This document shows, one piece after another, positions 995 through 24,044 of a stretch of 24,081 bases of DNA (position 1 is the stretch's first letter; the number at the start of each line of letters is the position of its first letter). Both the position numbers and the translations under genes were made by a program. The stretch covers positions 2,960 through 27,040 of the forward strand of contig CAYQTZ010000002.1 of NCBI GenBank assembly GCA_964420565.1. Reading direction: 5' to 3'. The notes below the pieces were generated by a model. The model saw nothing but the letters and a program-made list of their open reading frames with translations, searched no databases and had not been told where the DNA came from. The stretch is from an uncultured Hyphomicrobiales bacterium (GTDB lineage Bacteria; Bacteroidota; Ignavibacteria; Kapaibacteriales; UBA2268).

Positions 995-3151
995 TTATTT
1001 CTTTCTGATAACCAGTATGTATGCTGTTAGTAATATAGCTGCAATGATATAGTTTGTATTTGCAATGCCCGCTATGGGTAACAAAAGAACAGATGTAACT
1101 ATAGCCCCAAGAGATGCTCCGAAGTAATCAGCGGAAAAGCTTTGTCCTGCGATAGATCTGCTTTCCGAAACGTAATTATCAGAAATTAGTCTGCCTGCCA
1201 CTGGGAATTGCAATCCACCCATTATTGAAATGATTAGTATTAATAATATGAAAATTGCTATTATGAAAAAATCATTGTTCATGCCAGCAAGCTCTTTGAT
1301 TATAATTGGTAAAGCTATGATGTATGCGGTCAGAAAAAGAAGCAGATTGCGGTATAGGACAGCTGTTTCTTTGTTGATGATTTTATTCAATCCTGCCCCC
1401 AGAGCCAGCCCAAGCATGAAAACAGAAAATATTATTGCTATAAATTCATAAGCGAAACCGTAGATCACCTGAAATGAGAATATCAGAATAAATTGGACAG
1501 AGGAAGCTGCAAAACCTCCTGCAAATAAGCCGTAGCTAACTGGATTTGACTTGATGGCAAAAAGGATCAGAGGAATAATGAAAATAATTAGAATAAAAAT
1601 ATCATATTCACCAAAATAGCTTAGCCGATAGTTTATCTCGCTGAAGTATGCAAATGGCTGAAAGTCGCGATTAATCGAAGCTGTACTGTCTAAATTGCTG
1701 ATTATATATTCTGCTCTGCTTTCTGTGGAGATCAGATCGTAATAGTATTGATTAACATAATCATTATCAATATTTTTTTCTATGAGAGAAGGAATAATAT
1801 TATATGTTAATATTTTATCAGATGCCAGAAAATAATTTCTTGAGCCGGGTATTATTATTATGTTTTGAAATACTTTGCTAAGTGTATTAAAAATTACTGA
1901 TTGAGCGAGTGCTTGTTCGCTGCTGAGGTAATTAGCAGTGGCGGGTAGCTGCAAAGATAATACTCCATTTGGAGAAAGGGCATTTTTTGCAAGGAGGAAG
2001 AATTCTTCAGTATAATATCTATTAAGCTGAGCGTTTGAGGGTGAGGGGACATTGATAATGATTGCGTTATAATTATTGAAATGATTTTTCAGGAATCGTC
2101 TGCCATCTGTTCTGTGGATGGATATTCTTTTATCGGATAAGTCAGCTTTAGAGAATTTATGATGATTCAATATTGCTGAGTTGATTTCTGTGTAGTCTAA
2201 TTTTTTGATATTATATTTCAGCACTTCGTCGGTCATTCCGGCAATTCCACCTGAGATCAGCAGCACATTCCGCACGGAGTCAAGTTGAGATAGTGCATAA
2301 TGAATAGACTCTTCGTTTTCAATTACAGAATTAGTAGAAAAAAGCAATGTACCATCTTCGAAAAAGTTGTATTGCTGCTCAGTTTTTGAGATAAGCAATC
2401 TGCCGTAAGGGGTGTCTTCGGTTATCATTATTTCCTGGTCGGGATATAATACCTGAATGGATCTTTCCTTATAAGTAGTTATAAGTATAATTGAAATAAC
2501 TATAATGATGATACCGGTAAGTCGTATTAGTATTTGATGTTTTTCTTTTGTGTTAAGTAAAAAAGCAGCGAAGATATTTAAAAATAATATTACAATCAGT
2601 GCATCGAAAGAATCAAGTATAAGCAAGAATACAAAATAAAAGATAAGTCCGCCTATTGCTCCACCTGTCAGGTCTAAGATGTAAACGGAAGCAGATGCAT
2701 TTTCAGCACGTAGAACTGAGGAATATTGGATTAGTGCTATGCCTGCTGCAAGGCAATAAGGAGCTGTCCATAATAATGAAAAAATGGTTGTTTCGGGTAG
2801 ATCCATCATTACTCCCTGTCCGAAGAACCATGCACGGCTGAAACGTATGCCCAGCACAGAGATTATTGGAAGTAAGGCAAGTAGAAGATGTAAGAATTGT
2901 ATTGATTTTATGCCTGCTTTGCTGCTCAGATATTTACCAATATAAGTACCGACACCGCTTAGCATAAGCCATAGCGAAAGCATGATGCCAAATATAAGTT
3001 CATTGCCATATACAACTGAATAAATCTCCCTAAAGAATAATAACTGGGCAATAATGGAGCTTGCTCCTATGATTATTATATTTGATCGCAGTTTTATCAT
3101 ATTATTTTGAATAATGCTCTTCATTTTTATAATATAATTTTTTATATTCAA
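995..3151 (-). CDS. Multi-pass membrane protein fused to a spermidine-synthase-like SAM-binding domain; true start possibly ATG at 3100
   Basis: Hydrophobic N- and C-terminal TM blocks flank a central domain with TPYGRL, YEESIH-like NEESIHY, VLLISGG, DGRRFL and YTEEFF; LELIVYG-like REIYSVVYGNEL and DYFGASLG membrane motifs. Confidence 0.8.
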   Translation of the reverse strand: MNIKNYIIKMKSIIQNNMIKLRSNIIIIGASSIIAQLLFFREIYSVVYGNELIFGIMLSLWLMLSGVGTYIGKYLSSKAGIKSIQFLHLLLALLPIISVLGIRFSRAWFFGQGVMMDLPETTIFSLLWTAPYCLAAGIALIQYSSVLRAENASASVYILDLTGGAIGGLIFYFVFLLILDSFDALIVILFLNIFAAFLLNTKEKHQILIRLTGIIIIVISIILITTYKERSIQVLYPDQEIMITEDTPYGRLLISKTEQQYNFFEDGTLLFSTNSVIENEESIHYALSQLDSVRNVLLISGGIAGMTDEVLKYNIKKLDYTEINSAILNHHKFSKADLSDKRISIHRTDGRRFLKNHFNNYNAIIINVPSPSNAQLNRYYTEEFFLLAKNALSPNGVLSLQLPATANYLSSEQALAQSVIFNTLSKVFQNIIIIPGSRNYFLASDKILTYNIIPSLIEKNIDNDYVNQYYYDLISTESRAEYIISNLDSTASINRDFQPFAYFSEINYRLSYFGEYDIFILIIFIIPLILFAIKSNPVSYGLFAGGFAASSVQFILIFSFQVIYGFAYEFIAIIFSVFMLGLALGAGLNKIINKETAVLYRNLLLFLTAYIIALPIIIKELAGMNNDFFIIAIFILLILIISIMGGLQFPVAGRLISDNYVSESRSIAGQSFSADYFGASLGAIVTSVLLLPIAGIANTNYIIAAILLTAYILVIRKK

Positions 3152-3190
3152 TTAATCAAGATTATGTAAAACATTTTTTGGGAAATAATA

Positions 3191-4492
3191 ATGTATGGAT
3201 CTGAATACGAGACAAAGCTTACCACGCCAGAGATAGCGGCAGAGATGATAAATGATGGCGATTCGATAATTCACGGGATGGCAATAGGCGAGCCACCAGC
3301 GCTCTTAGAAGCTATAGCTAAACGACTGCGTGCGGATGATCTCGATAAGATTCGTGTTTATTCGCTGTTGCCTTTGGATCATATGCAGAATACTTTACTT
3401 ATGCCAGATATTGCAGATAAGGTTTACCCATATACATGGTTCGTTAGCGGACACGATAGGGGATTAGTGCATATCGGCTTGGATCAGTTCATTCCCAATC
3501 ATTTTCACGAAGTGCCAAAATTGATAGAAGATCATATTGATCTGGATGTGGTGATAACAACAGTTTCACCTATGGATAGGGCGGGGTACTTTACTTTTGG
3601 GGCTATCAATGATTATATCAGCACTGCTGCCCGCCACGCAAAAAAGCTGATAGTGGAAGTCAATCCAAATATGCCTCGTGTATTCGGTGATTCTTTATTA
3701 CATATTTCTGAAGTGGATGCAGTAGTTGAGTTTGAGACACCTCTCCTTGAGTTCAAGGTGGCTAAAGCAAAACCTGAAGCTAATATTATTGGGAAATATA
3801 TTTCTGATATGATACCAAATGGAGCAACTATTCAACTTGGGATAGGAGCTATACCCGATGCAGTAGCTGGCTTGCTTTCAGACCACAAAGACCTTGGTGT
3901 GCATTCTGAACTTTTATCGAACGGAATGCTGGGCTTGATCAAGAAAGGAGTAATTAACGGCAGTAAAAAGAATCTGCATCCCCGAAAGAATGTCTTTGCA
4001 AATGCTCTTGGCGATAGGGATTTATATGAGTTTATTAATGACAATCCGTCTATGGAAAGTTACCCCGTGTCTTACATAAACGATCCTGATATAATTGCAA
4101 TAAATGATAACATGATTTCGATCAATTCTACTATCGAGGTGGATCTGTTCGGTCAGTGCAATTCTGAATATCTTGGGGATCAGCAGTTCAGTGGCACTGG
4201 CGGTCAGCTTGACTTTGTTCGAGGAGCTTATAAATCAAACGGGGGCAAATCTTTTATCGCATTTTATTCTACAACGCAAGGTGGGAAAGTCTCGAGAATA
4301 GTGCCGAAGCTTCACAGCGGCACTGTGATTACTACTCCGCGTATGGATACTCATTATCTCGTAACAGAATATGGTATTACTGATCTGAAGGGAAAATCCG
4401 TCAGGGAGAGGGCATTAGCGATAATCCAGCTTGCTCATCCTGATTTTCGGGAGGATCTGCTATTAGAGGCTGAGACTATGAAGTTGATGTAA
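3191..4492 (+). CDS. Acetyl-CoA hydrolase/transferase family protein (4-hydroxybutyrate CoA-transferase-like)
   Basis: TIQLGIGAIP, HSE (catalytic Glu position), GTGGQLDFVRGA, VTEYGI and IAHPDFR-like LAHPDFRE motifs. Confidence 0.92.
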   Translation: MYGSEYETKLTTPEIAAEMINDGDSIIHGMAIGEPPALLEAIAKRLRADDLDKIRVYSLLPLDHMQNTLLMPDIADKVYPYTWFVSGHDRGLVHIGLDQFIPNHFHEVPKLIEDHIDLDVVITTVSPMDRAGYFTFGAINDYISTAARHAKKLIVEVNPNMPRVFGDSLLHISEVDAVVEFETPLLEFKVAKAKPEANIIGKYISDMIPNGATIQLGIGAIPDAVAGLLSDHKDLGVHSELLSNGMLGLIKKGVINGSKKNLHPRKNVFANALGDRDLYEFINDNPSMESYPVSYINDPDIIAINDNMISINSTIEVDLFGQCNSEYLGDQQFSGTGGQLDFVRGAYKSNGGKSFIAFYSTTQGGKVSRIVPKLHSGTVITTPRMDTHYLVTEYGITDLKGKSVRERALAIIQLAHPDFREDLLLEAETMKLM

Positions 4493-4701
4493 GGATATGC
4501 TCTGATATATTGAAGAAGTATTTTTGTAGAATTTTCAATAGTGAGGTGTTCGGCGAAGGGCTTGCGTAAGCGTAAGATAAATGATTACAGTAATTTACGA
4601 TTATTTGGGAATAAAATTTGAATTGATAATAAGAATAGTGCTTATAATTCATTAATTTGCAAAAAATAGAATTACGATAAATAGATTTGTTAGGAGATGA
4701 T

Positions 4702-12546: not shown

Positions 12547-13062
12547 TTATATGCTGTTAAACGTTAGAGTAATTCTTCTTTTCTTTGAATAACTGACAAC
12601 GTGGTTATAAGTCGTTCTTACAGATTTCAATGATTGTGGTTTTATGTTAGGATCACTATTCTTTTTGTATTCAATGTATTCATTGAAATGTTTTAGAAAA
12701 CTTTTTTTATCATCTTCTTTCTTATTCTTTAATTCAGGTCTTAATCTCGAGAATAAAATCTGCTTAAAACTTCCTGAGCTTTGTTCTTCCCAAATAAATC
12801 CATCAGTCTTTTGCAATATAATCTCTTTTATTGTATTCTCCATTTTTGATAGCTCAAAATTATATGCCTGAGAATACTCAGCTTTTGGTTTCAATCTTTG
12901 AGTCTTTTCATTCCGGTCCTTATGTGCAATTGAAAATCCACTTGAGAATCTGAGTCTTTTTCCTCTGTATGAGATATGCACAAGAATTGCAGAATTAGAT
13001 AGATTTGGTCTCATTAAATTGAAACCAACATTGATTATGTTCTTACTATACTTCCTTGCCAT
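12547..13062 (-). pseudogene. N-terminal half of a tyrosine integrase (Arm-DNA-binding plus SAM-like domain start); catalytic domain missing
   Basis: FNL...ILVHISYRGKRLRFSSGFSI...RNEKTQRLK arm domain; FLKHFNEYIEYK...KSVRTTYNHV...LTFNSI then stop; no R-H-R-Y domain follows. Confidence 0.8.
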
Positions 13063-16928: not shown

Positions 16929-17139
16929 TCGAGTAAAAAGCAAGTACCGTTTTTTTTTACTGATTCAATATACAACCAGTACAAGTAAGAGAGGAAGTAA
17001 ATATTTGATATTATTAGACACAGGACTTCCCCCTTGCTTGTAAAGGAGCAAACAAGTGGGATCATTATTTATTCTTTTCACCCAAAAATTTATTTATAGG
17101 TAGCTAATACACAGACTCGACAAGTTAGGGGAAAATCTA

Positions 17140-17278
17140 AGACCATTGCAAAACCAAAGAAAATCCCCCTCTTAAAATAGAAAGAGCTTATAATATTATA
17201 TATCAATGACTTACCCCTCTCTCTAACTCGTAAGGAAGGGCCGGGGAGGGATCAGCTTTGGAGTTTTGCAATGGTCTC
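17140..17278. mobile_element. MITE-like element with terminal inverted repeats
   Basis: agaccattgcaaaac (17140-17154) and gttttgcaatggtct (17263-17277) form a perfect 15-bp inverted repeat; no ORF inside. Confidence 0.6.
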
Positions 17279-17296
17279 TTATTGTAATATGATGAA

Positions 17297-17380
17297 TTAT
17301 ATCCTACCCCCAATATCATCCTTTTTCTTTACGCCTTCTGAGAACTCGGCGAGTTTATTTTCGAATATCTCACTATAAAT
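17297..17380 (-). pseudogene. Degenerate PP2C/SpoIIE-like gene 3' end, copy A
   Basis: Translates IYSEIFENKLAEFSEGVKKKDDIGGRI*; DNA aligns to copy B (ccttctgagaactcggcgagt vs cctttggagaactctgcgagt). Confidence 0.6.
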
Positions 17381-17457
17381 TTAAAGCAGTTATGTCAGCA
17401 TCCAGAATAATGCTATGAAAGAATTTATTAAGATATTATTGAGTATATATATTGATA

Positions 17458-17670
17458 TTATAGCAATTCCATAAATTTTTCGATAGACAGTCCAGATGAT
17501 TTTCCAATACCACCCATAGTATAAGAATTTATGGGGTTATTCCTTGGAATTGTTAAAATTATATCGCCATTTGTCATTATTATGTGTTTGCTTTGCCGAA
17601 GAATCCAAAAACCAGCTTTTTCAAAAGCTCTAACTGCATTAAGATGATTTATACCAGAAATTTTTGGCAA
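17458..17670 (-). CDS. hicA: HicA family toxin (mRNA interferase)
   Basis: 70 aa; AVRAFEKAGFWILRQSKHIIM (conserved His), TIPRNNPI...TMGGI; TTG start abuts the antitoxin stop. Confidence 0.8.
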   Translation of the reverse strand: MPKISGINHLNAVRAFEKAGFWILRQSKHIIMTNGDIILTIPRNNPINSYTMGGIGKSSGLSIEKFMELL

Positions 17671-17862
17671 CTATACCTCTATCTGAAGGGATTTTTCTCT
17701 CAAACTAAGCTCTTTTTTTGCTTCAAGATACTCAATAATAGCAATTTTGATATTTTCTATTGCTTCTTCCTCGGAATCTCCCTGAGAAAAACATCCAGGC
17801 AAATCCTCGCACCAGACAGCATAACCTTCATCACTATTAAGTATTTTTATATTATAATTCAT
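17671..17862 (-). CDS. hicB: HicB family antitoxin (short form, no DNA-binding domain)
   Basis: EGYAVWCEDLPGCFSQGDSEEEAIENIKIAI; GAGG SD before ATG 17862. Confidence 0.88.
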   Translation of the reverse strand: MNYNIKILNSDEGYAVWCEDLPGCFSQGDSEEEAIENIKIAIIEYLEAKKELSLREKSLQIEV

Positions 17863-17943
17863 AGACGACCTCATTTTCTTTTTAAACGATTATTATTTAT
17901 CAATATTATAATTTAATAAGAATCATAGTAATTAGAAATTAGA

Positions 17944-18048
17944 TTACACCCTCACCCCCAGCACCGCCACATCATCCCTGTTCTTTTCGCCTTTGGAGAA
18001 CTCTGCGAGTGTTTTTTCCAGTATCACTTTTTGCTCTGGTAAATGTAT
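17944..18048 (-). pseudogene. PP2C/SpoIIE-like gene 3' end, copy B
   Basis: Translates IHLPEQKVILEKTLAEFSKGEKNRDDVAVLGVRV*; DD-hydrophobic-G-V-R matches the final metal-binding strand of SpoIIE/PP2C domains; begins beside the vapC stop. Confidence 0.7.
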
Positions 18049-18049
18049 C

Positions 18050-18433
18050 TTATAGTCTATGAAGTTCATTAATACAATCGAATTCCTTATCTAAGGAGTA
18101 GAATGTTATTGAATTTCGAATACATAGTTCTGCAATTAAAACATCCGAAGGTGTTAAAGTTATTCCTTCTTTTCTTAAATCTCTTATTCTGCTACCAGCA
18201 TTAATAAAATCTCTTCTTTCAAAATCAAAGTATTTTAATATTGAAAACAACTGTTCAACTTCTTCTTTTTGTCTTTTGCTTTTTATGCCCTGAATTATTT
18301 CAAGTTCGATTATCCCGCAAATACAAGCAGAATCATTTTCAATCAGTAATTGTACTTTGTCTGCTACATCTTTATCAGAGTTCCTAAAGAATTTGATCCA
18401 GCAAGAGGAATCAATCATTATCAAATTTGCCAT
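18050..18433 (-). CDS. vapC: PIN-domain VapC toxin (start possibly ATG 18418)
   Basis: IMIDSSCWI, IELEIIQG, SDVLIA, SLDKEF acidic PIN motifs. Confidence 0.92.
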   Translation of the reverse strand: MANLIMIDSSCWIKFFRNSDKDVADKVQLLIENDSACICGIIELEIIQGIKSKRQKEEVEQLFSILKYFDFERRDFINAGSRIRDLRKEGITLTPSDVLIAELCIRNSITFYSLDKEFDCINELHRL

Positions 18434-18641
18434 TGGCTATCTCTTCCAGCTCTTTATGCTTTAGAATATCAATATTATCATCTATGTCAACATTGCCTCG
18501 GAGTGCAATCAGCTTCTGCTTTTTGAAAAGTATCATAAGATCTTTTAATGCTCTGTTGACCGCTTCAGTTTTAGTCTTCGACTTATAATGAGCGAATATC
18601 TCATTAATGATTTCGTCATCAATATTTATAGTCGTTCGCAT
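18411..18641 (-). CDS. vapB: VapB-family antitoxin
   Basis: MRTTINIDDE...TKTEAVNRAL RHH-type pattern; overlaps the vapC start; GAGG SD. Confidence 0.88.
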   Translation of the reverse strand: MRTTINIDDEIINEIFAHYKSKTKTEAVNRALKDLMILFKKQKLIALRGNVDIDDNIDILKHKELEEIANGKFDND

Positions 18642-18715
18642 ACATTTCCTCTCAAATAATATGTCAAATTAATGCATAAATATAATAAATAATTAGCATA
18701 TTTCCAATAAGTATT

Positions 18716-18919
18716 TTATACACTCACCCCCATCACCGCCACATCATCTCTGTTTTTCTCATTTTGAGAAAAATAATCATGGGTATATTCTTTAGCATTC
18801 CGAAGCTCTTTCAGATGCGAATCAATTTTCTCCTGACCCTGCTTTTGGGCTTGTAAAGTGGAAAGAGTAAAAATAAAGAACATCACTGTAAAAACAAAAA
18901 ACTTCTGTAACATTTTCAA
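18716..18919 (-). CDS. Mini-gene copy C: signal peptide plus 44-aa stub ending in the PP2C C-terminus (probable internal-deletion product)
   Basis: AGGAG SD; hydrophobic signal peptide ending LQA; last 136 bp match copy D at 125/136. Confidence 0.55.
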   Translation of the reverse strand: MKMLQKFFVFTVMFFIFTLSTLQAQKQGQEKIDSHLKELRNAKEYTHDYFSQNEKNRDDVAVMGVSV

Positions 18920-18986
18920 GTCTCCTATAAAATTATTCTTGATTACTTTCGTATAGGACTATATTGTTAAATATTTTGAGTTCATA

Positions 18987-19253
18987 ATGGTTGTTCTTGA
19001 AAAAATTACTACACAGGAATTTGAACTATTTCATTTATTATATCAAATTCATACACTTAGATACAAAATACATTTTTTTGAAATTAAATACAAATGTAAA
19101 TTCAATGAATTTGAAGATAGCATAGAAAAAATGAATGTTGAAAATTTTGAGGAGTGGGATGAATATCTTGAATGGAAAGCTAATTCAAAATTGTTAAATC
19201 AATTACTATCTCAGAAAAAGGATATTGAAAGTGGAGATTTTAGCATTTCTTGA
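18987..19253 (+). CDS. Small acidic antitoxin-like protein (TumA-like, usual partner of DUF6516)
   Basis: FEIKYKCKFNEFE...EEWDEYLEWKA pattern; stop overlaps a short downstream ORF. Confidence 0.5.
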   Translation: MVVLEKITTQEFELFHLLYQIHTLRYKIHFFEIKYKCKFNEFEDSIEKMNVENFEEWDEYLEWKANSKLLNQLLSQKKDIESGDFSIS

Positions 19254-19308
19254 TAATTCTGAGATTGTGAAGCAATATTATACAAAACGAAGCAAATGCA
19301 AAGAATAA
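19231..19308 (+). pseudogene. Truncated DUF6516/TumE-like toxin N-terminus
   Basis: GTG-start MEILAFLDNSEIVKQYYTKRSKCKE*, overlapping the upstream gene; resemblance recalled, not searched. Confidence 0.35.
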
Positions 19309-19343
19309 TCGTATATTATTAAAAAGTATTTTGGAATTAAAAT

Positions 19344-19562
19344 ATGATAAGTAATAACATAGCAATTGAGCCGGGTAAACGCAGCGGAAAGCCCTGCATT
19401 AGGAACTTAAGAATAACAGTTTATGATATTCTTTCATGGCTCGCTAATGGTATGACTTTCGAGGAAATTATTGATGATTTCCCGGAGCTGACGAGAGAGG
19501 ACATCCTTGCTGCTTTGAAATATGCTTCTGAAAGAGAACAAAAACTCATGGTTGTTACATGA
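19344..19562 (+). CDS. DUF433 antitoxin
   Basis: PGKRSGKPCIRNLRITVYDIL...EIIDDFPELTREDILAALKYA. Confidence 0.93.
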   Translation: MISNNIAIEPGKRSGKPCIRNLRITVYDILSWLANGMTFEEIIDDFPELTREDILAALKYASEREQKLMVVT

Positions 19563-19891
19563 AACTTCTTTTTGACCAGAATATATCGTATAAGATTGTC
19601 AAAAGATTGAAACATTTATACCCTGACTCTGTTCATGTGAATATCCTTGGTTTATCAAAAGCAAGTGATATTGAAGTATGGAATTATGCCAGGAGCAATG
19701 GATTTACAATAGTTACTCATGATGTAGATTTTTCAGAACTATCTGTTATTAAAGGCACCCCTCCCAAAATTATTTGGCTTCGATGTGGAAATAATACAAC
19801 AAAACATATTGAAATATTACTATTGAAAAATCATTCAATAATTTCTGATTTTATTAATGATATAAATATATCAGTCCTTCAGATTTTCTGA
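19559..19891 (+). CDS. DUF5615 PIN-like (VapC45-like) toxin
   Basis: MKLLFDQNIS, SDIEVWNYA, IVTHDVDF, PPKIIWLRCGN; ATGA overlap with DUF433. Confidence 0.93.
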   Translation: MKLLFDQNISYKIVKRLKHLYPDSVHVNILGLSKASDIEVWNYARSNGFTIVTHDVDFSELSVIKGTPPKIIWLRCGNNTTKHIEILLLKNHSIISDFINDINISVLQIF

Positions 19892-19893
19892 AC

Positions 19894-20091
19894 TTACGCC
19901 CTCACCCCCAGCACAGCTACATCATCTCTGTTTTTCTCATCTTGAGAAAAACAAATATGGGTATATTCTTTAGCATTCCGAAGCTCTTTCAGATGCAAAT
20001 CAATTTTCTCCTGACCCTGCTTTTGGGCTGGCAAATTGGAAATACCAATAGTAAGAAATACCGCTGTTATTAGAATGGATAGCTTTTTCAT
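19894..20091 (-). CDS. Mini-gene copy D: signal peptide plus stub ending in the PP2C C-terminus
   Basis: MKKLSILITAVFLTIGISNLPA signal peptide, then QKQGQEKIDLHLKELRNAKEYTHICFSQDEKNRDDVAVLGVRA*; stop lies 2 bp from the DUF5615 stop. Confidence 0.55.
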   Translation of the reverse strand: MKKLSILITAVFLTIGISNLPAQKQGQEKIDLHLKELRNAKEYTHICFSQDEKNRDDVAVLGVRA

Positions 20092-20514
20092 AGCTCTATC
20101 TTTAAGAAGTATAACAATGCATATTCTAAATTGTAAGTTCTAATATAGCAGTTTATTAGCTTAGTTCAAAAAAAAATCATTATCATAACAATTATCTGGA
20201 ACATCAGATAAATCGCATCAAGAAACACGCAAGTATGCACTGAGTCAGGTCTGATAATTCAGCTCAAATGAGCTTTTTCTTGATCATTTAAATAAAATAT
20301 TTTACTTATGAAGTTTATTAAATACAAGAGGTGATTTGGAAAGATATGAATCGAAATGAAAAATTCAAATTTAATTGCATTCAATAGATTTAATAATAAC
20401 TTAGATAATAATTTTAAATATATCTTTTGATTTATTTTAAAATATTACTATATAAGATGAAGCCCTCTTATATGGATGTCATCTGTAAAATATTAGCTGA
20501 TTTCTGTTTTGTAA

Positions 20515-20889
20515 CTATCCTTCCAAAACATTAAAAGAGAACTTAATATCTTCGGCAAATTCTTCACCACTTTCTTTAATGTCTTCATCATCTTTTTCGT
20601 AGTACCAATTGACCTTTGGTTCTTTGCCCTGCTCGTGGAATACTTCCAAAATATCGAGAATATCTAAGATAGCTTTAGATGAGCTAGTATTAAAATATAT
20701 GAATTTGAAGCTAATAGTTAAGTTGACATTACTTTTCTCACCATATTCTGTAATCAACTGAATAATCTGATTATAGAATTCAGAGGCGCTTTCAGGATAA
20801 GACTGTCCTTCGATAAAAAGCTCTCCTTTTTCTGCAACGAATTTAATTTCTGGAGTATCCTTAGCTGCTTCGATGAATAGATCTTGCAT
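20515..20889 (-). CDS. siaC: SiaC family regulatory phosphoprotein (DUF1987)
   Basis: DTPEIKF...IEGQSYPE...FYNQI...YFNTSSSKAIL...VNWYYEKDDEDIKESGEEF. Confidence 0.9.
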   Translation of the reverse strand: MQDLFIEAAKDTPEIKFVAEKGELFIEGQSYPESASEFYNQIIQLITEYGEKSNVNLTISFKFIYFNTSSSKAILDILDILEVFHEQGKEPKVNWYYEKDDEDIKESGEEFAEDIKFSFNVLEG

Positions 20890-20890
20890 A

Positions 20891-21433
20891 CTATGTTTCC
20901 TTTTTTACTTTTACATTAATTTTTAAGAATGAGCAATCATCATCTATAGGTAATATCTCGTAATCAATTATGCTCTTTGATTTGCGAACAATATCTATCA
21001 ATCCGAGTCCTGCGCCCTTACTGTCTGACTCTTTCACATCGCGTAAACGTTTTTTATAGAATTTCTTTAGCTCAGGTTCTTTCATGCTATTGATATTATT
21101 CAAATGGTCTGTCAGTTTATTGACTTTAGTATTTTCAATCTTATTGCCAGAGAAAATATTAAACCATTTTTCATCTTCTGAGAAAAGTATTATTCCAACG
21201 CCAATTTCTTTGCCTTTTATTCTTTCTTTTTCTGCAGAATAATGCATTATATTCTGTGCTAATTCAACGAAAACAGAGAATATCGTTTTTATAAGCTTGC
21301 CTGCCGATACTTTTTTAACAATAACATCGCCAATTCTGACCAGCAGGTCCTGAGACAAAGCACCATTGAATTCAAGAAGCACATTATCGCTTTTTGTATT
21401 AAAGTAATGTTTTAAAAAATCTACTTCAGCCAT
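20891..21433 (-). CDS. siaB: SiaB family protein kinase (DUF6272); likely start MAEVDF
   Basis: FSVFVELAQNIMHYS, FSGNKI, KGAGLGLIDIVRKS HATPase-like motifs; 1 bp from siaC. Confidence 0.88.
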   Translation of the reverse strand: MAEVDFLKHYFNTKSDNVLLEFNGALSQDLLVRIGDVIVKKVSAGKLIKTIFSVFVELAQNIMHYSAEKERIKGKEIGVGIILFSEDEKWFNIFSGNKIENTKVNKLTDHLNNINSMKEPELKKFYKKRLRDVKESDSKGAGLGLIDIVRKSKSIIDYEILPIDDDCSFLKINVKVKKET

Positions 21434-22300
21434 AGTACACTTTCCTTTTTTGTCAATATATTCATTTATTTTAACAAAAACAATGCCAATCAATATTTAT
21501 TGCAAATACTTATTAATGTCAGCTGCATAAGAAAAGTTCATATTATAAAATATCCTTAGCCCTTATATTTATTACCCTCAATAGATATGTCGAAAACCCG
21601 AGTATCATGAATATTTCTTATTATATAAAGGATCAATAGAAAATATTCGATAATTAATTAGTTATTAAAAAAAAGAAATGTGAGAAAAACAAGAAATATT
21701 TCATATATTAGAAATTAATATTTATTGCATTTATGAAAAGAAGAAGAAAAAACTTACACTTTAATACTATTCATGGAAATATTTGGGTAAGGATGTCTGC
21801 AAAAATGAATATGAAAAAAGATCATTTCTGAAAATGATAACTTTCCGTTGATTTGCATAACATATATATTACTAATTCAATCCAGCAAGCATCTTATATA
21901 GACGATAAATGAAAAACGATGCTGAACAATAATTCGCAATGTGATTTTATTGATTATTGAAAATCCCATCTACTAAATTAATGTGCTCTGGCAGCAAAAT
22001 ATAGATAACCAATATAGAAAAAAACCGATGAGCAAAGCCTTCCAAGAAGATGTATTTCTGGCAAGTTACTTTATAAGAGAAACAAGCATTATCAAAATAC
22101 TATCAGGTAAAAATTTCATAGGAATAGAATTACGATCTGTATTTGTAGTAGAGATATTAACTATAATAAGCGATAGCAAAGACGGCTGATCAGAAAAATC
22201 AATTTCGCAGAAAATTAAATAAATTCTAAAGCCGATATAATAATTGTAAAAGAAAAAGTGGAATATATGAACCAATTGATAGAAATAAATCAAAAAAAAA

Positions 22301-22331
22301 TTTGAAAATATTAGGAATTTCATTATCTTTG
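22301..22331 (+). promoter_or_regulatory. Bacteroidota-type promoter for rpsT
   Basis: TTTG (22301-22304), 19-nt spacer, TATCTTTG (22324-22331). Confidence 0.65.
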
Positions 22332-22375
22332 GAGTTCGTAAAACAGTATTATTAATAAAAGAGTGTATAAGGTAG

Positions 22376-23485: not shown

Positions 23486-23557
23486 GGTCCCGTCGACTAA
23501 TGGTTAGGTCACCAGCCTTTCACGCTGGCAGTAGGGGTTCGAATCCCCTCGGGATCA
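23486..23557 (+). tRNA. tRNA-Glu(TTC)
   Basis: Acceptor GGTCCCG/CGGGATC, anticodon arm ccagc-ctTTCac-gctgg, T-arm agggg-ttcgaat-cccct. Confidence 0.97.
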
Positions 23558-23617
23558 CTTACTAATTCTCGTAATTAATTATCTTCCAAAAACTTATAGA
23601 AACAGCTGATTTTATGT

Positions 23618-23780: not shown

Positions 23781-24044
23781 TCACTTGCGTTTTTCATCAG
23801 AACACAATGTTGATATATTATTACTTGATATTTTCAGTCTCTCTTCCAACACCTTCATAGCGTGCTTTTTATTAGCTGGCTTCCATATGATGCCAGTTGA
23901 TTTCCTGTCTGAGTCAACAGATGTGTAAACGAGTATTGTTCCATCCTTCATAGTACGAGGATAGCAATAAGCAAACTTGTACCATGGATGAATCCAAAGG
24001 TTTTCAGTATTTTTAACTATTCTCATGATATTTTTGAGTTTCAA
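23781..24044 (-). pseudogene. Possible N-terminal (arm-binding-like) fragment of an integrase
   Basis: YTSVDSDRKSTGIIWKPANKKHAMKVLEERL resembles RKSTG...NKK.A arm domains; stops early; lies next to tRNA-Glu. Confidence 0.35.

Follow-up and report, generated by a model that had tools for sequence, protein, structure and literature searches.

Remnants of sensor-phosphatase genes alternate with toxin-antitoxin modules next to siaBC in a Kapaibacteriales genome: a probable collapsed paralogue array

Gene content of the array and its surroundings

The 24,081-nt stretch of DNA analysed here (the window) comprises positions 2,960 to 27,040 of contig CAYQTZ010000002.1 in assembly GCA_964420565.1, deposited as an uncultured Hyphomicrobiales bacterium and placed by GTDB in the Kapaibacteriales (Bacteroidota). 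Named homologues of YchF and VapC indicate an uncultured Ignavibacteria/Kapabacteria-like member of the Bacteroidota. On the minus strand of the window, the adjacent genes siaB and siaC are followed by an array in which four remnants of phosphatase genes alternate with toxin-antitoxin (TA) genes. This region is most probably what is left of a tandem array of TPR-SpoIIE (PP2C) sensor-phosphatase paralogues linked to siaB-siaC, with TA modules that have persisted.

Four copies of a phosphatase gene end, all on the minus strand, start at 17297, 17944, 18716 and 19894 and are spaced 647, 772 and 1178 nt apart; the original prediction had given these starts and spacings, the common orientation and the minus-strand translations, all of which were confirmed in the sequence. 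The repeat search placed the copies at 17944, 18716 and 19894 in a 57-nt direct-repeat family (79-81% identical to the copy at 17944, which served as reference), and a 24-nt core with up to three mismatches matched only these three positions and nothing in 100 shuffles. The GC content of the first 60 nt of the copies is 0.38-0.55, against 0.34 for the whole window.

Tail A (17297-17371, minus strand) is a decayed version of the last ~24 codons and stop of a TPR-SpoIIE phosphatase gene, with a gap of roughly five codons (14 nt) and upstream stops. It is still recognisable by alignment and by tblastn with the full-length paralogue of the same genome (residues 681-701, 57%, E 0.005). Tail B (17944-18042, minus strand) holds the last 32 codons and the stop, with 75% amino acid identity to the paralogue C-terminus (E 3e-10) and 85-88% nucleotide identity to the tail of the paralogue on contig C260. 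The other two copies form open reading frames (ORFs) of 67 and 65 aa, mini-ORF C (18716-18919, minus strand; head 18781-18919, last 20 codons 18716-18780) and mini-ORF D (19894-20091, minus strand), the latter being the first array member after siaC. In both, the first ~45 phosphatase codons are kept, and a signal peptide and ~22 mature residues continue in frame into the last 20 codons at an identical head/tail junction. The two share 86% identity over 174 nt in the repeat search (18716-18889 and 19894-20067) and 92% over 142 nt by blastn. The earlier description of the copies as 3' ends therefore applies to A and B, while C and D also hold the gene head. An orthologue of mini-ORF C was found as a 64-aa ORF in a metagenome relative (L021, see below).

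A perfect palindrome of 9-13 bp is located at the head/tail junctions of C and D (18745-18773 and 19931-19959; DNA fold z -2.4 and -3.1) and is weaker in full-length tails. Apart from it, no clear repeat that could account for the deletion by microhomology was found at these junctions. The borders with the TA genes are tight, as had been noted before: the homology of tail B (to about 18042) ends 8 nt before the vapC stop codon (18050-18052), the 41-aa frame carrying this tail (17944-18069) overlaps the vapC 3' end by 20 nt, and only 2 nt separate the stop of mini-ORF D (19894) from that of a DUF5615 gene (19891). A promoter and terminator scan of the array gave nothing above background, and an Rfam search of the array returned no match.

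The TA and TA-like genes are distributed over the three intervals. The hicA toxin gene (17458-17670, minus strand; 70 aa; Pfam HicA_toxin, E 3e-4, below the gathering score) and the hicB antitoxin gene (17671-17874, minus strand; 67 aa; HicB_lk_antitox, E 4.4e-9) lie between tails A and B, and the vapC toxin gene (18050-18433, minus strand; 127 aa; PIN, E 4e-12) and the vapB antitoxin gene (18411-18641, minus strand; 76 aa; VapB_antitoxin, E 8e-13) between tail B and mini-ORF C. The third interval is occupied on the plus strand by an orphan TumA-like gene in antitoxin position (18987-19253; 88 aa), with no TumE toxin gene after it, an antitoxin-like DUF433 gene (19344-19562; 72 aa; E 2.5e-25) and a toxin-like DUF5615 (PIN-like) gene (19559-19891; 110 aa; E 2.9e-36), which is convergent on mini-ORF D. 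Judged by their arrangement and Pfam domains, hicB/hicA, vapB/vapC (23-nt overlap) and DUF433/DUF5615 (4-nt overlap) are predicted to be type II TA gene pairs, HicA with its score below the gathering threshold. Pfam agreed with the TA content proposed earlier for all genes but the TumA-like one, which has no Pfam match of its own. This gene had been called a remnant; it is an intact ORF, left as an orphan antitoxin gene, with 59% amino acid identity to an 88-aa gene that overlaps TumE (Pfam E 3.5e-18) in L021.

The TA genes were compared with their counterparts in L021 and in a second metagenome relative, L030. HicA shares 96% amino acid identity with the L021 copy (ratio of nonsynonymous to synonymous substitution rates, dN/dS, 0.07), HicB 94%, and VapC 90% with L021 and 84% with L030 (dN/dS 0.11-0.20); for vapB the ratio is 0.08-0.12. 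Over all TA genes compared with L021 and L030, dN/dS ranges from 0.07 to 0.33, which indicates purifying selection. The DUF433 protein shares 82% amino acid identity with a copy in a further relative, L027, where the gene is flanked on both sides by a full phosphatase gene. In two salt-lake metatranscriptome runs, contigs match parts of hicAB (17564-17803) and of vapC/tail B (18016-18308) at 100% identity, which may reflect expression of hicAB and vapC and is compatible with it, but does not prove it. The same matches point to the same or a near-identical organism in a second habitat. For siaC and vapC, an exact-protein look-up found unitigs of the source run and nothing else; for DUF5615 it gave no record.

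The genes siaC (20515-20889, minus strand; 124 aa; Pfam SiaC, PF09345, E 9e-41) and the siaB-like kinase gene (20891-21493, minus strand; 200 aa; DUF6272, E 9.4e-40) are separated from the array by a non-coding spacer of 423 nt (20092-20514). In relatives a small SpoIIE gene follows siaC; a tblastn search of the spacer with the 346-aa and 318-aa proteins of two of them (G055 and G024) detected no remnant of it. Where a siaA-type phosphatase gene would be expected, 0.9 kb of AT-rich non-coding DNA is present at siaB-siaC (window 20891-22375), and no siaA remnant was detected upstream of siaB or in the spacer between siaC and D. A complete phosphatase-siaB-siaC operon is found on another contig of the same genome (C22:1-2615). 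The PP2C partner of the window siaBC pair is present only as stubs, with intact partners in this operon and in relatives, and the pair at this locus appears to have lost all its linked phosphatase inputs.

At the other end of the array, at a distance of 19 nt from the tail A stop, is an element of ~140 nt (17139-17278) that resembles a miniature inverted-repeat transposable element (MITE) and has terminal inverted repeats of 15 bp. The element has ~195 blastn matches across the genome, and its unitig depth is 96-135x compared with ~5x for the flanks. Another copy is located at the start of the L027 contig.

Identity of the stubs

The full-length relatives of the stubs could be recognised within the same genome. 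Contig C260 encodes a 707-aa protein with the order signal peptide, TPR repeats, transmembrane (TM) segment and SpoIIE domain, the last at residues 510-706 (Pfam). In full-length paralogues the match covers positions 2-190 of the 192 of the SpoIIE profile (PF07228) and reaches the final residue, and it is the last 21-32 residues of these proteins that the stubs match (E 3e-10 to 5e-3). The matches to the heads of C and D are the N-termini of homologous full-length proteins in three relatives (G024, L027 and L029) and include the QKQGQ..ID..L..L motif region.

Identity was assigned by alignment to these paralogues and not by Pfam, which returned no SpoIIE match for the stubs alone, as they are too short. 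The motif had been proposed to be the terminal strand of SpoIIE/PP2C domains; this held in the paralogue alignments, and a hidden Markov model search of the stubs alone gave no match. On the alignments, the stubs can be assigned to the TPR-SpoIIE (PP2C) phosphatase family, the tails corresponding to the terminal strand of the PP2C-type domain. All four window copies are devoid of TPR, TM and catalytic regions and are thus gene remnants, with no intact catalytic domain. Neither the ORF list nor tblastn with the paralogue revealed an intact phosphatase gene within the window.

Arrays in related genomes and metagenomes

Gene orders are given here along the phosphatase coding strand (the minus strand of the window), with P for a full phosphatase gene, T for a tail and H for a head. 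On this strand, the window reads siaB, siaC, the 423-nt spacer, the head+tail copy D, the convergent group DUF5615, DUF433 and TumA-like, the head+tail copy C, vapB, vapC, tail B, hicB, hicA, tail A and the MITE-like element.

Three relatives from the same family carry full-length arrays without TA modules. In G055, siaB and siaC are followed by the SpoIIE gene (346 aa) and by P669, P1059 and P810. Four back-to-back P genes with 10-nt spacers are present in G024 beside a TPR-HisK gene, siaB, siaC and the 318-aa SpoIIE gene, and G067 has a tandem P pair of which one member is frameshifted. The linkage of siaBC to a tandem TPR-SpoIIE array is shown by these genomes to be a family-wide architecture. 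Between the four-gene array and siaB of G024 (locus L064, G024:C1:443000-460000, at 2648-4669, minus strand) lies a gene for a 673-aa protein with the head and TPR sensor of the phosphatase family and a HisKA/HATPase end instead of SpoIIE, which looks like a swap of the output domain on a common sensor.

Closer metagenome relatives, with 68-82% amino acid identity in the TA genes in common, were found in sample Ga0272443. L029 has the order full P1, vapB, vapC and full P2, and L027 has a tail stub, a full P (834 aa), an inverted DUF433 gene and another full P; the stub of L027 has no TA module beside it.

Wrecks similar to the window were found in three further metagenome loci. L021 and L033, from two Joint Genome Institute (JGI) samples, share the order T1, PIN module, head+tail copy, vapBC, T3, inverted TumE, TumA and DUF433, T4 and hicBA. 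L030, from the European Nucleotide Archive (ENA), reads T, DUF4160/DUF2442, T, vapBC, T, inverted truncated TumE (TumE') and TumA, and a head-only stub that is interrupted by a stop. Tail A is absent from the closest relative. Loss of a TA partner is seen repeatedly, namely a TumA-like gene in the window that lacks TumE, DUF433 genes of L021 and L027 that lack DUF5615, and the truncated TumE in L030, and this erosion matches the turnover published for chromosomal TA genes (PMC13617665). In L032, a JGI 3300066524 contig that belongs with L027 and L029 as an intermediate state, vapC is followed by head fragments broken by insertion sequence (IS) elements; within its positions 1-20408, the vapC homologue (74% identity) and the phosphatase head fragments are found amid DDE, ISL3 and rve transposases and an McrBC system.

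Outside these loci, a DNA search of 40 relatives, all of other genera, returned no orthologous array. In G006 and G039 the TA homologues have no tails and lie amid housekeeping genes, and those at other places in the genome of the window are tail-less as well. The siaBC loci of G003, G005 and G014 continue with a histidine kinase or methyltransferase gene and are uninformative for the array. An exact-codon tail pattern had no match in metagenome and genome contigs, and an amino-acid-degenerate one gave three true matches, all of low GC, and five chance matches in high-GC DNA. In a YchF-anchored search for contigs of the same genus, synteny was not conserved.

Recombination at the conserved gene ends

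One alignable segment of the window and L021 extends from the mature head of C across vapBC as far as tail B, and a second one from tail B across hicBA (89% and 94% identity). Between T3 and T4, both of which match the single tail B of the window, L021 has an additional TumE/TumA/DUF433 module. Compared site by site, the 5' part of tail B is T3-like, its 3' part and downstream flank are T4-like, and a mixed zone is found in the conserved core. This pattern identifies tail B as a recombinant of the L021 tails T3 and T4. L030 shares the order vapBC, T and TumE/TumA, and on the simplest reading the window would have lost the TumE/TumA module by recombination between two tails. A gain or loss of TA genes exactly at the repeats had been proposed as a test by comparison of the siaC-downstream locus across strains, and the comparison with L021 and L030 came out positive.

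Identity between the window and L021 falls from 93% to 46% exactly at the boundary between mature head and signal peptide, which makes the head a breakpoint as well. The DUF433 and TumA-like genes of the window have only 72-74% nucleotide identity to those of L021 and stand in permuted order, and are therefore not simple orthologues.

No recombinase was found in or next to the arrays by ORF and Pfam analysis of the window, nor in L021, L030 and L033. All ORFs between 14.3 and 22.7 kb of the window were identified and comprise an extracytoplasmic function (ECF) sigma factor, a type IX secretion system (T9SS) protein, the TA genes, siaBC and rpsT. A 171-aa ORF at 12547-13062 (minus strand) has only an Arm-DNA-binding domain and no catalytic domain. 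Beside a tRNA-Glu gene (23486-23558), an 87-aa ORF (23781-24044, minus strand) has no Pfam match and resembles an Arm fragment by eye only; both ORFs could have remained from integrated elements on either side of the wider region. Compared with shuffles, tail B did not fold better on either strand (z +0.36 and +0.65), and no attC-like fold was seen. The diffuse breakpoints, the involvement of the heads and the lack of a recombinase argue for homologous recombination or gene conversion between conserved paralogue parts, and homologous recombination between conserved gene ends is the simplest cause of the module turnover.

Origin of the array and alternative explanations

The original prediction had offered two options: a phosphatase 3' end serving as the recombination site for serial TA capture, or a collapsed array of sensor-phosphatase paralogues with hitchhiking TA modules. 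The second is supported by the relatives, which show intermediates, and by the presence of gene heads in addition to tails. The main argument for such a collapse is the series that leads from the compact array to arrays with TA modules in the spacers and to stubs with TA modules.

Three steps can be proposed. TA modules (vapBC, hicBA, DUF433/DUF5615, TumA/TumE and others in relatives) would first have lodged in the spacers between paralogues. The phosphatase genes would then have lost their ~2-kb bodies by deletion, leaving head+tail fusions (C and D) or tails only (A and B), while the TA modules would have remained intact under purifying selection. Finally, the head (QKQGQ..ID motif region) and the G-rich tail (EKNRDDVAVLGV), as the sole stretches nearly identical among paralogues, would have acted as homology arms, between which recombination or gene conversion could delete, duplicate and swap TA modules. 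Such homology arms would explain that strain differences start and end in the repeats and that two mini-ORFs have one junction. Both the order of events and RecA-type recombination as the agent are inferred. Addiction to, or benefit from, the TA modules may be why they outlived the phosphatase genes, along the lines of a proposal by Szekeres 2007 cited in PMC7167474. The claim that copy A, as the most decayed one, reflects polarised accretion was rejected: copy A is just the most eroded copy, the nearest relative does not have it, and there is no evidence for a temporal order of the copies.

Several observations weigh against the collapse of a paralogue array. All ~12 stubs keep the last 14-32 codons and the stop, a retention of tails that random deletion does not predict, and two deletions have their left ends at a TA stop or no more than a few bases from it (vapC/tail B in the window; DUF2442/T in L030). 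Compared with the copy in L021, the mini-ORFs, which are open and keep their signal peptides, show a synonymous excess (dN/dS about 0.24; Fisher p 0.014 and 0.048). Dead DNA would not be expected to show such an excess, unless gene conversion had imported the variation. In addition, no same-species genome with an intact array at the exact locus was found, so that the ancestral state has been deduced from relatives at the genus or family level.

Other explanations were weighed as well. One is that the heads and tails of the paralogues form a cassette system that needs no recombinase and moves TA modules between strains and positions, the tails and mini-ORFs being kept by selection for this exchange or for a function of their own. 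We consider it unlikely.

Another one is that the remnants themselves are under selection, either because the ORFs of 65-67 aa are functional small secreted peptides or because the tail DNA serves the adjacent TA modules as an insulator or in an operator-proximal role. It draws on the synonymous excess just mentioned, on the three mini-ORFs (C, D and the L021 copy) that are open, in frame and with a signal peptide, on the stop-proximal codons kept in all stubs and on the palindrome at the junction. The counts behind the excess are tiny, however (4-8 changes per class), dN/dS between C and D is 0.65 and not significant, and gene conversion from live paralogues would mimic constraint. The head copy of L030 is cut by a stop, tail A is decayed, tails show no higher conservation than the TA genes next to them, and there is neither an enrichment of promoters or terminators nor an Rfam match. 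Selected remnants are accordingly a quite unlikely explanation.

The capture of TA modules at the phosphatase 3' end had been the first option of the original prediction. It would require a dedicated system in which this end is att-like and a site-specific recombinase captures and shuffles TA modules, as in integrons or by tandem accretion of integrative elements. A tail copy does bound every module in four arrays, the content and order of modules differ between strains with breakpoints inside tails, the DUF433/TumA modules differ between the window and L021 by a circular permutation, and N-terminal integrase fragments lie about 4-5 kb off on both sides. These integrase traces are, however, short Arm-domain fragments with housekeeping genes (rpsT, tRNAs) between them and the array, and no recombinase was found in or adjoining any array. 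The repeat is plainly coding sequence of a gene family with no significant fold (tail B z +0.4 and +0.7). Heads are repeated too, and tail length varies across the arrays (14-32 codons), without a constant boundary. The same tails end intact genes in L027 and L029, where L027 also has its stub without a TA neighbour, and TA modules homologous to those of the window are tail-less, both in other genomes and at other places in this one. Such a system is therefore very improbable.

The genome is a metagenome-assembled genome (MAG) of 3.29 Mb and 604 contigs, 81% complete and with about 5x depth in the source run, where unitigs break at common 31-mers inside C and D. Unitigs of this run that are 100% identical to the window bridge the repeats (17824-18808, 19836-19986 and 19957-20700); one of 985 nt spans hicB, tail B, vapCB and tail C with no mismatch, and others span DUF5615 to tail D and head D to siaC. 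A chimera of paralogous phosphatase loci, joined via their common ends in a low-coverage assembly, can be practically dismissed in view of these mismatch-free bridges, of repeats that are only 79-92% identical and hence resolvable, and of the independent assembly of the same vapBC-tail junction and head+tail ORF in two JGI samples and one ENA sample.

A collapsed paralogue array with persisting TA modules would bring together three processes, namely tandem arrays of signalling genes, the lodging of selfish TA modules in their spacers, and differential decay in which TA modules outlast the host genes. All stages (compact array, TA-bearing array and wreck) can be seen side by side. This makes the locus a natural test bed for two questions: whether TA modules outlive their neighbourhood through addiction, and whether conserved paralogue ends act as homology arms for the turnover of accessory genes.

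Comparison with known systems

The adjacent siaB (DUF6272, kinase-like) and siaC genes resemble those of the SiaABC(D) system of Pseudomonas aeruginosa (PMC7647112), for which PP2C/SpoIIE partners are expected. In contrast to that system, this lineage joins siaBC to multi-copy TPR-SpoIIE sensors and not to one SiaA, there is no siaD, and all linked phosphatases in the window are reduced to stubs.

Direct repeats of a 3' end that bracket accessory DNA are also a feature of integrative elements that accrete at the 3' end of a gene or tRNA (attL/attR duplicates). Here, however, there is no intact target phosphatase gene at the head of the array and no integrase between the repeats. The 5' ends are repeated too, as the C/D repeat extends through the head, and the tails in relatives belong to separate full-length paralogues.

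Sedentary chromosomal integrons (PMC7167474 and PMC11551772) likewise have short repeats that alternate with TA modules in variable order. For the Vibrio superintegron, TA modules have been proposed to protect the integron array from large deletions (PMC11551772; Szekeres et al. 2007, cited in PMC7167474). By contrast, the array described here has neither an IntI with attI and promoter nor attC hairpins, its repeats are the ends of phosphatase genes, and its turnover is best explained by homologous and not by site-specific recombination.

Chromosomal clusters of type II TA genes (Belot et al. 2026, PMC13617665; PMC7167474) are similar in that several unrelated TA pairs occur within about 3 kb, that content varies between close relatives, and that orphan antitoxins and truncated toxins are present. 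They differ in that the spot is here the inside of a tandem paralogue array, that it is the host genes and not the TA genes that are eroded, and that no transposase or integrase accompanies the modules. The array behaves as a hypervariable, TA-rich spot bounded by paralogue ends. The locus would thus represent a combination of known processes (TA clustering, the erosion of genes and recombination between paralogues), with ordinary decay rather than a new gene-capture system behind its present form.

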